A DNA stretch of 64,000 bases from Escherichia coli (lineage in GTDB: Bacteria; Pseudomonadota; Gammaproteobacteria; Enterobacterales; Enterobacteriaceae). The stretch is taken from assembly GCF_044324785.1 (NCBI RefSeq), contig NZ_CP172127.1. One strand, 5' to 3'. Made by a program: the position numbers and the translations under genes. The notes under the pieces are model-generated. The model saw only the letters and a program-made list of their open reading frames with translations, had not been told where the DNA came from and did not search any database. Shown piece by piece: positions 40,037-41,233 of this stretch (the first letter of the stretch is position 1; each line of letters starts with the position of its first letter).

Positions 40037-41233
40037 ATGCTTAAAAGACGTGATGCTTTTTTAAAGAAAAGCGCGCTGGCAGTGAGTGTGGCCCTGCTAC
40101 TCTCATCTCAGGCTCAGGCTCAGGCTCAGGCTCAGGCTCAGGCTCAGGCTCATAAAACACTTACTGAGTCATCGACGGGTATTATCTGGATTGATAATGG
40201 AACTCAGTCACTTGAAAGTGCAAGTGTGATTGACAGAAATGGAAATGCTAACGATGGTGGTAGTGTTACTGTTACTGGAAAAAACTTTGCTGTTGGTTCC
40301 GATGCAAAAATTTGGGATGCGGATAAATCCATGGCAGTGGGACATAAGACAGCTGTTTTTAATGCAGACAACAGTGTCGCTCTGGGGTATGGCTCTCAGG
40401 TGAATGGAGAAAGCAATGTACTTTCTGTAGGGGCCGGTCCTTCAGGATATGGATTTTCAGTTGATGGTGCACCGGAAACCCGCCGGATTATAAATGTTTC
40501 AGATGGTGTTAAGGATAGTGATGCGGCCACAAAAGGACAGATGGACAACGCCATTGCAGATGCTGTACGGGTGTCGGGGGATGCCCTGCGCGGTGAGATA
40601 GGCGGTGTATACAGAGATGCCCGTGCTCATACTGACAGTCAGGTTACAGCAGTACGTGATGAACTCAGCAGGGATATTATTGCAGGCACATCGGCAGCGG
40701 TGGCGTATACGGATGCATCTTCTCTTGCTCTTCAGGATGAAATAAAAGAAAAAGCGGATGAAACAGTTCAGGTTTCCCGGGCTTATACAGATAAAAGTGT
40801 ACGGGATGTCCGTAAAGAAGCGAAAAGCCAGGCAGAACATCTCAGCGATGTGCTTGTGAAGAACAGGGCGCAGACGGATGCAGCAATAGCCTCAAATACA
40901 GCAGCGATAAGGAATAACAGTCATCGTCTGGATTTGACGGAAGCCTGGCAGAAGATGGCGACAGAGAGAATGAATAATATGCAGGAGCAGATTAAAGAGA
41001 ACCGGAAGGAGTTAAGGGAGAGTGCAGCCCAGAGCGCGGCACTGGCCGGTCTTTTCCAGCCATACAGTGTTGGAAAATTTAACGCGACAGCAGCCGTTGG
41101 TGGTTACCGTGATGAGCAGGCCATTGCGGTGGGCGTGGGCTACCGTTTCACAGAGAATGTGGCAGGAAAAGTTGCAGTTGCTGCAGGTGGGTCATCCGCA
41201 TCGTGGAATGCTGGTGTGAATTTTGAGTTCTGA
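40037..41233 (+). CDS. Trimeric autotransporter adhesin (YadA-like)
   Basis: Signal peptide [24 protein letters not shown]; coiled-coil stalk; C-terminal YadA anchor ...[31 protein letters not shown]. Confidence 0.8.
40109..40150 (+). repeat. (CAGGCT)7 hexanucleotide repeat, in frame, encoding (QA)7
   Basis: Seven perfect CAGGCT units at the signal-peptide / mature-protein boundary of the adhesin. Confidence 0.9.

Follow-up and report, generated by a model that had tools for sequence, protein, structure and literature searches.

A polymorphic in-frame hexanucleotide repeat at the signal peptidase motif of a YadA-like adhesin gene in Escherichia coli

A run of CAGGCT hexanucleotides lies in frame across the signal peptidase motif of a gene for a small YadA-like adhesin of E. 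coli, and its length differs between isolates. The preliminary description of this DNA had proposed that repeat number be compared among isolates; when this was done, the number was found to differ, from 3 to 9 units, on otherwise near-identical haplotypes. Our results suggest that the tract is probably a moderately unstable in-frame microsatellite (a VNTR locus) that was born from a signal peptidase motif and whose lengths are largely neutral. The pure tract is rare and its lengths are common to isolates from different continents, which argues that the locus does not act as a fast contingency switch. Throughout, the window means the whole stretch of DNA that was analysed, 64,000 nucleotides in length, and the features discussed are collected in the table.

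The repeat and the gene that carries it

Positions 40109-40150 of the window consist of seven copies of CAGGCT with zero mismatches. The reading frame of the ATG at 40037 is kept through the tract, which encodes (QA)7, residues Q25-A38 of the product. Direct reading agrees with Tandem Repeats Finder (40107-40152, period 6, 7.7 copies, 100% matches, score 92), and both bear out the in-frame (CAGGCT)7 of the preliminary description. No other perfect multi-copy short repeat is present in the 64 kb window. A four-unit CAGGCT probe matched the window within the tract only and had 0 matches in 100 dinucleotide-preserving shuffles; the tract is a real repeat and a chance origin is excluded. Folding of the tract as single-stranded DNA gave no significant structure (z = -1.35), so a hairpin is no explanation for its instability, and a scan for promoters and terminators revealed nothing relevant to the repeat.

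Features of the adhesin locus, in window coordinates
Feature	Position	Strand	Basis or remark
Shine-Dalgarno-like AGGAG, 9 nt 5' of ATG 40037	40023..40027	+	sequence reading
398-aa YadA-like trimeric autotransporter adhesin gene (predicted), stop included	40037..41233	+	ORF, Pfam, NCBIfam
Signal-peptide n-region, h-region and first c-region residues (SS)	40037..40108	+	inspection of translation
(CAGGCT)7 hexanucleotide microsatellite, (QA)7	40109..40150	+	sequence, TRF, shuffles; copy number polymorphic between isolates
(GTTACT)2 encoding VTVT, head	40265..40276	+	one unit in several alleles (e.g. BEN2908, XDL)
99-bp / 33-aa stalk repeat, single copy	40586..40684	+	BLAST 99-bp spacing, TRF, alignment
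YadA-like beta-barrel membrane anchor, residues 340-398	41054..41230	+	Pfam, structure match
151-aa sigma-70 region-4-like helix-turn-helix protein	41295..41750	+	directly 3' of adhesin gene, always

The identity of the product is clearest at its C terminus, where the Pfam YadA anchor (PF03895) matches over the full model length (residues 340-398, E 2.4e-16) and the YadA anchor structure 2LME matches at E 1.2e-17. A YadA-like anchor at the end of the reading frame means that the label of trimeric autotransporter, which had been given in the preliminary description, holds. Weak Pfam matches were obtained to YadA_stalk (E 0.0011) and YadA_head (E 0.027), and the Pfam domain order is one of head repeats (residues about 96-125), a stalk motif (150-176) and the anchor. 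The NCBIfam model YadA_autotrans aligned with residues 74-397 at E 2e-22, a match well short of the cut-off for the YadA equivalog, and RefSeq names the orthologues 'YadA-like family protein'. The sequence elements of a type Vc system are present, namely the C-terminal anchor, an N-terminal Sec signal peptide that ends at a signal peptidase I motif (judged by inspection of the sequence, and conserved in all aligned alleles) and a head, neck and coiled-coil stalk. Hence, the window protein is classed as a small YadA-like trimeric autotransporter, for which trimer formation and surface display are predicted. Some database orthologues are named 'immunoglobulin-binding protein', which is an annotation; the EibD fragment 2XZR matched at E = 0.15 over the coiled coil and no Eib chain passed E 0.001. 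The first of these values gives no support to an Eib identity, the database name notwithstanding, and the protein was not classed as an Eib. Neither the tkt1-island paper nor the BEN2908 genome paper mentions the adhesin, and within the literature covered we did not find a published name for the gene. On this basis the adhesin gene, its 33-aa stalk repeat and the adjacent sigma-like gene appear to be uncharacterised.

By inspection, the signal peptide has an 11-residue n-region with a net charge of +4, an 11-residue h-region and an Ala-X-Ala in its c-region, such that the N terminus of the product runs from the basic n-region through the hydrophobic core and SS to (QA)7 and then HKTL. Residues 1-23 are nearly invariant across 19 aligned alleles. 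The cleavage motif is SSQALA, before HK, in most alleles and SSQAQA... in the window allele. In the common alleles the signal peptide ends in A-L-A and is followed by H/Y/N-K, a textbook site by the -3/-1 rule of signal peptidase I, which calls for Ala-X-Ala (PMC9360617), and cleavage is therefore predicted after residue 28. At this ancestral site the window allele has A26-Q27-A28, and its tract offers seven Ser/Ala-X-Ala candidate sites, after residues 26, 28, 30, 32, 34, 36 and 38, with c-regions of 4-16 residues. The active site of signal peptidase I is at the membrane surface, and c-regions of more than about 9 residues are reportedly processed poorly, a finding attributed to Jain, Rusch and Kendall in 1994. 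Given an active site close to the membrane and a limit on the c-region, sequence rules would make proximal cleavage, after A26 or after the ancestral position A28, the most likely outcome. About five QA units would then remain as a flexible, Gln-first tail on each chain at the N-terminal tip of the head. The effect on secretion or adhesion would probably be small and the length polymorphism largely neutral, neutrality being an assumption.

These features modify two points of the preliminary description. The repeat had been placed right after the signal peptide; it does lie at this boundary, but it starts 2 residues past the hydrophobic core and overlaps the cleavage motif. Changes in the repeat had also been expected to alter the length of an N-terminal stalk, and this expectation has to be abandoned. 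The N terminus of a trimeric autotransporter forms the membrane-distal tip of the head, so that the QA tract is unable to alter stalk length, and a separate 99-bp repeat varies the stalk. The route to surface-protein variation that had been seen in the repeat is, for this locus, a putative one.

This 99-bp repeat is present in one copy in the window, two in TUM9754, about 4 in FDAARGOS_1287, CLSC36 and GPEC1031, and 2-3 in the common 419/421- and 452/454-aa alleles. Tandem Repeats Finder detected it at 2139-2515 of the FDAARGOS_1287 locus (L006; period 99, 3.8 copies, 98%), the gap blocks in stalk alignments are of 99 and 198 bp, and the adhesin ranges in length from 388 to 501 aa. From these comparisons, it is the coiled-coil repeat and not the QA tract that changes the length of the stalk. 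The doublet of GTTACT in the head, of which several alleles have one unit, is a further small in-frame hexanucleotide polymorphism of the same gene. The passenger also varies on a larger scale: two proteins of 555 and 557 aa (P0145 and P0146) have this signal peptide too, with AQAQA or AQAQAQ at its end, and share the stalk and anchor of the window adhesin while having a different, longer head. Their composition indicates that passenger domains may have been recombined in a modular fashion behind a common signal peptide. In E. coli S51 the orthologue (L011, 1578-2740) is a frameshifted pseudogene, which shows that some strains can dispense with the adhesin gene. Its frame breaks at about codon 17, ahead of the tract, and the tract has the ordinary interrupted two-unit form.

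Copy number among isolates and the pace of change

Pure CAGGCT tracts of every length, 3, 4, 5, 6, 7, 8 and 9 units, were observed. The longest, of 9 units, is in FDAARGOS_1287 and one of 8 units is in LH50-c. The 7-unit allele was found in the window and in two further draft genomes. Six units are present in seven complete genomes, among them TUM9754, four chicken isolates of the GPEC series and one blood isolate from the UK that was sequenced twice (the strains named are TUM9754, GPEC1031 and AHB3), and four units in the complete genomes of CLSC36 and M25631H, in one draft genome and in one metagenome contig. Both 5- and 4-unit tracts also occur in draft genomes, and when metagenome contigs were scanned for exact runs of four or more pure units, two were detected, with 5 and 4 units. 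The complete genomes listed without a pure tract have 2 or 3 interrupted units. Counts for complete genomes were obtained from the length of the spanning segment and then by retrieval of the sequence. Database proteins contributed pure tracts of 3, 4 and 5 units, and a protein search with the N-terminal 89 residues produced 20 fragmentary proteins with more alleles of 3-5 units. A protein search with the long-stalk (QA)9 allele returned mostly known alleles and none of more than 9 units; no allele of more than 9 units was found in 5,426 complete genomes or in the protein database.

Length variation is also found on a second backbone, distinguished by V18M and S24A, which has pure tracts of 3, 4, 5 and 8 units. 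In all of the pure tracts a single pair of codons is used for every unit and synonymous changes are absent, a uniformity which indicates that the tracts would reflect recent slippage and not selection for the QA peptide. Each allele observed, from 2 to 9 units, is in frame, in keeping with the earlier proposal that slipped-strand changes would keep the frame. Identical tract lengths are common to isolates from different continents: (QA)6 with four stalk repeats was found in chickens from the US and in the blood isolate from a UK patient, and (QA)4 in Canada, in China and in a metagenome.

The tract changes against a background that is almost constant. Two proteins differ from the window protein solely in having (QA)5 and (QA)4, respectively (P0041 and P0044), and a third has QALA as its only difference (P0098). 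Over about 2.9 kb around the gene there are 0 substitutions between the 7-unit window and either a 4-unit locus (L016) or the 9-unit locus of FDAARGOS_1287, 1 substitution for TUM9754 (6 units) and 3 for a 5-unit locus (L015). Over 12.4 kb (window 33960-46400), haplotypes with 4, 5, 6 and 7 units differ by 1-6 substitutions. There have been at least 4 length changes in a 42-bp tract versus a handful of point changes in a flank of about 12 kb. As at a VNTR locus, strains differ by whole units and the tract changes much faster than its flank.

A rough reckoning from these figures is that mutations in the tract would be about as frequent as those in the whole of 10 kb or more of ordinary DNA. With an assumed point-mutation rate of about 2e-10 per site, this would put the tract at the order of 1e-6 per generation. 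Whole-unit changes at the VNTR loci of E. coli O157 with 6-bp units occur at 4e-5 to 2e-3 per generation (PMC3777172), and our approximate rate would be far above the point-mutation rate and below these figures. The presence of identical alleles in unrelated isolates is evidence that the rate is moderate, unlike that of a contingency locus. The slippage step is one that we infer from the differences between strains.

Most alleles of the gene do not have a pure tract. The commonest form is interrupted, CAGGCT TTGGCT (QALA; 84 protein alleles), followed by CAGGCT TTGGCT CAGGCT (QALAQA; 40 protein alleles, with S24 and A24 backgrounds counted together). Across about 124 protein alleles the interrupted tracts exhibit these two main states plus a rare QASA, and some interrupted alleles are on 400-1000 contigs. 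Pure tracts, a rare allele class, have 7 lengths among far fewer alleles, mostly found on a single contig. Judged by allele counts, the interrupted tracts have greater stability than the pure ones, as expected of a VNTR, and interruptions are predicted to stabilise this microsatellite, which is the usual pattern. The ancestral and common site would be SSQ-A-L-A, before HK (QALA), or QALAQA, a normal Ala-X-Ala motif for signal peptidase I. Loss of the TTGGCT interrupter would leave pure CAGGCT units; as GGCT recurs at a 6-bp spacing in QALAQA, a single slippage event can delete TTGGCT. A pure tract, once formed, would be unstable, with whole units gained and lost by replication slippage. Hence, the microsatellite probably arose by loss of an interrupting unit from an ancestral Ala-X-Ala motif.

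Genomic surroundings

The region is 97-99.5% identical to many E. coli chromosomes, largely from extraintestinal isolates of birds and humans, APEC BEN2908 among them. In TUM9754 the adhesin gene is within a mosaic island that adjoins setC-yicL-nlpA and contains CP4-type toxin-antitoxin genes, ireA and IS elements. Immediately 5' of the adhesin gene in this strain are a LacI regulator, a PTS IIA/IIB/IIC system and a split transketolase, and 3' of it are the sigma-70 region-4-like helix-turn-helix gene, mliC, nanE and another PTS gene. A tRNA scan of the window found none, and an attachment of the island to selC is therefore unconfirmed within the window.

The protein encoded 3' of the adhesin has a weak match to sigma-70 region 4 or ECF-like helix-turn-helix domains (E about 2e-4). 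Its gene is always found 61-62 bp 3' of the adhesin gene, a pairing that holds where the neighbours are prophage tail-fibre genes (L009) and where the island is another one (L017). The 151-aa protein may be a dedicated regulator that travels with the adhesin as a two-gene module.

Other irregularities were observed in the sequence 5' of the adhesin gene. Comparison of window 30049-33960 with three other loci (L018, L019 and L014) revealed about 90 substitutions in the few kb 5' of about 33.9 kb, and from about 33.9 kb onward the pure-tract haplotypes have 1-6 substitutions per 12 kb. This distribution suggests that there may be a recombination boundary within the island near 33.9 kb. A 50-bp tandem repeat (28930-29038; 2.2 copies, 96% identity, TRF score 204) is located 5' of a YagK/YfjJ-family gene (29921-30487), and an imperfect AT-rich tandem repeat at 23811-23888 has a period of 25 and 3.2 copies and is also scored with a period of 13. 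A transposase remnant (38999-39181) separates the adhesin gene from the transketolase genes; its counterpart at orthologous loci is annotated as a frameshifted partial transposase. The remnant contains a small repeat of 15 bp x2 (39052-39083).

Interpretation and comparison with known systems

An error of assembly or sequencing at the repeat could in principle generate differences in count, and some long-read platforms are error-prone at short repeats. The tracts are of 18-54 bp, however, well inside read length, and the differences are all of whole 6-bp units. Counts of 7 (the window and two other genomes), of 6 (seven complete genomes) and of 4 (two complete genomes, a draft genome and a metagenome contig) each recur in independent assemblies. 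Whole-unit differences and independent recurrence led us to reject an artefact, which is very improbable. A short repeat of polymorphic copy number in the signal-peptide coding region of an adhesin gene brings to mind the classical on/off phase variation that slipped-strand mispairing causes in the opa genes of Neisseria or the outer membrane protein genes of Helicobacter, and in this respect the tract resembles a contingency locus. The other mark of such loci, a frame shift that turns expression on and off, is lacking: the unit is of 6 nt, every allele from 2 to 9 units is in frame and encodes a full-length protein, and the sole pseudogene, that of S51, loses its frame before an ordinary interrupted tract. 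With this unit length and no frame-shifting allele, we rejected on/off switching, the least probable of all the explanations considered.

Two further explanations give the length of the tract a function. The number of QA units might tune the release of the adhesin from the inner membrane by signal peptidase I, with surface levels set, or premature folding prevented, by a lengthened c-region or by several sites in series. In a similar way, early steps are slowed by the extended signal peptides of other autotransporters. Slippage would then generate heritable, graded expression variants. The tract is positioned exactly on the cleavage motif and offers 7 candidate sites, for which the c-region would be 4-16 residues long. 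Its copy number varies on a single haplotype, and the lack of alleles of more than 9 units in 5,426 complete genomes and the protein database could mean an upper functional limit. However, there are too few pure alleles from which to infer a ceiling, most alleles of the gene are stable and without a pure tract, such that tunability is not conserved in the family, and the proximal Ala-X-Ala ending at A28 is present at every tract length and hence processing need not change. We consider such a secretion rheostat unlikely. A heritable, strictly stepwise form of it, in which each unit, by extending the c-region or supplying one more Ala-X-Ala site, shifts the rate or position of cleavage and thereby the time of tethering to the inner membrane and then surface density or folding competence, is likewise unlikely. 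To our knowledge, E. coli has few repeat-based contingency loci; if true, this mechanism would be a graded counterpart of on/off phase variation that operates by in-frame slippage. It is also conceivable that the (QA)n tail is retained on the mature adhesin, and that its length alters antigenicity, autoaggregation or access to a receptor and is selected by immunity or niche. The N terminus is the membrane-distal end in the established architecture of trimeric autotransporters, and the VT unit and the 33-aa stalk repeat suggest a tolerance of, or selection for, length variants. Against this, retention of the tail is an assumption, a QA tail of such low complexity, 2-14 residues long, would hardly make an epitope or binding site of consequence, and the alleles, shared as they are by chicken and human isolates, show no evident link to host or source. 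Selection on the mature tip is a doubtful proposition, to which we attach little weight.

A microsatellite of largely neutral length is the reading that we prefer. If it holds, the locus would be a useful and ordinary 6-bp VNTR marker with which to resolve closely related ExPEC/APEC island haplotypes. It would also be a clean natural example of how the loss of one interrupting unit converts a stable signal peptidase motif into an unstable microsatellite. The natural series of alleles, with 2-9 units on an almost invariant backbone, offers a ready test of how c-region length and tandem Ala-X-Ala sites influence the choice of cleavage site by signal peptidase I in vivo. The locus would matter more if tract length changes the processing of the signal peptide or the display of the adhesin.

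We found no description of the QA locus as a VNTR in the literature searched. The closest known loci are the VNTRs used in MLVA of E. coli O157:H7 (TR3, TR4, TR7 and O157-10; PMC3777172), which likewise have perfect hexanucleotide units and change by whole units through slipped-strand events; among these 6-bp VNTRs, the rate is low and fairly constant for alleles of modest length (up to 13 units) (PMC3777172). As in O157, copy number of the QA tract differs between otherwise very similar strains. Unlike the O157 VNTRs, the QA tract is in a different gene and lineage, on the signal peptidase motif of an adhesin and within an ExPEC/APEC-type island, and its rate is estimated from haplotypes.

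The CTCTT repeats of Neisseria opa genes and the CT repeats of Helicobacter pylori are located in signal-peptide coding regions, where slippage switches translation on and off. The QA repeat likewise falls among the signal-peptide codons at the 5' end of a gene for a surface protein and varies in copy number, whereas the opa and H. pylori units are not multiples of three and the QA unit is of 6 nt, with every allele in frame. Variation in the copy number of stalk repeats is classical in YadA, UspA, BadA and similar adhesins. The 99-bp / 33-aa coiled-coil repeat of this gene, with 1 to 4 or more copies, is of this kind; the QA tract, by contrast, is a dipeptide microsatellite at the opposite end of the protein and not a structural module. 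An in-frame leucine repeat, (CTG)n, is present in the signal peptide of human carnosinase (CNDP1), and its length changes the efficiency of secretion. Both CNDP1 and the QA tract are length-polymorphic in-frame repeats inside a signal peptide, but CNDP1 is eukaryotic, its repeat is in the hydrophobic core and its effect has been shown, whereas the QA tract is at the cleavage site and its effect, if any, would be hypothetical. The Eib and Cla/Yal adhesins (bioRxiv 10.64898/2025.12.25.695649) are likewise small (about 400-500 aa) YadA-like proteins of E. coli associated with mobile elements, and a paralogue of the window adhesin is located beside prophage tail-fibre genes (L009); unlike Eib, the window protein matches the solved EibD fragments at E = 0.15 only. 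Viewed beside these systems, the QA tract adds a further case to a familiar class of loci and would not surprise a specialist.
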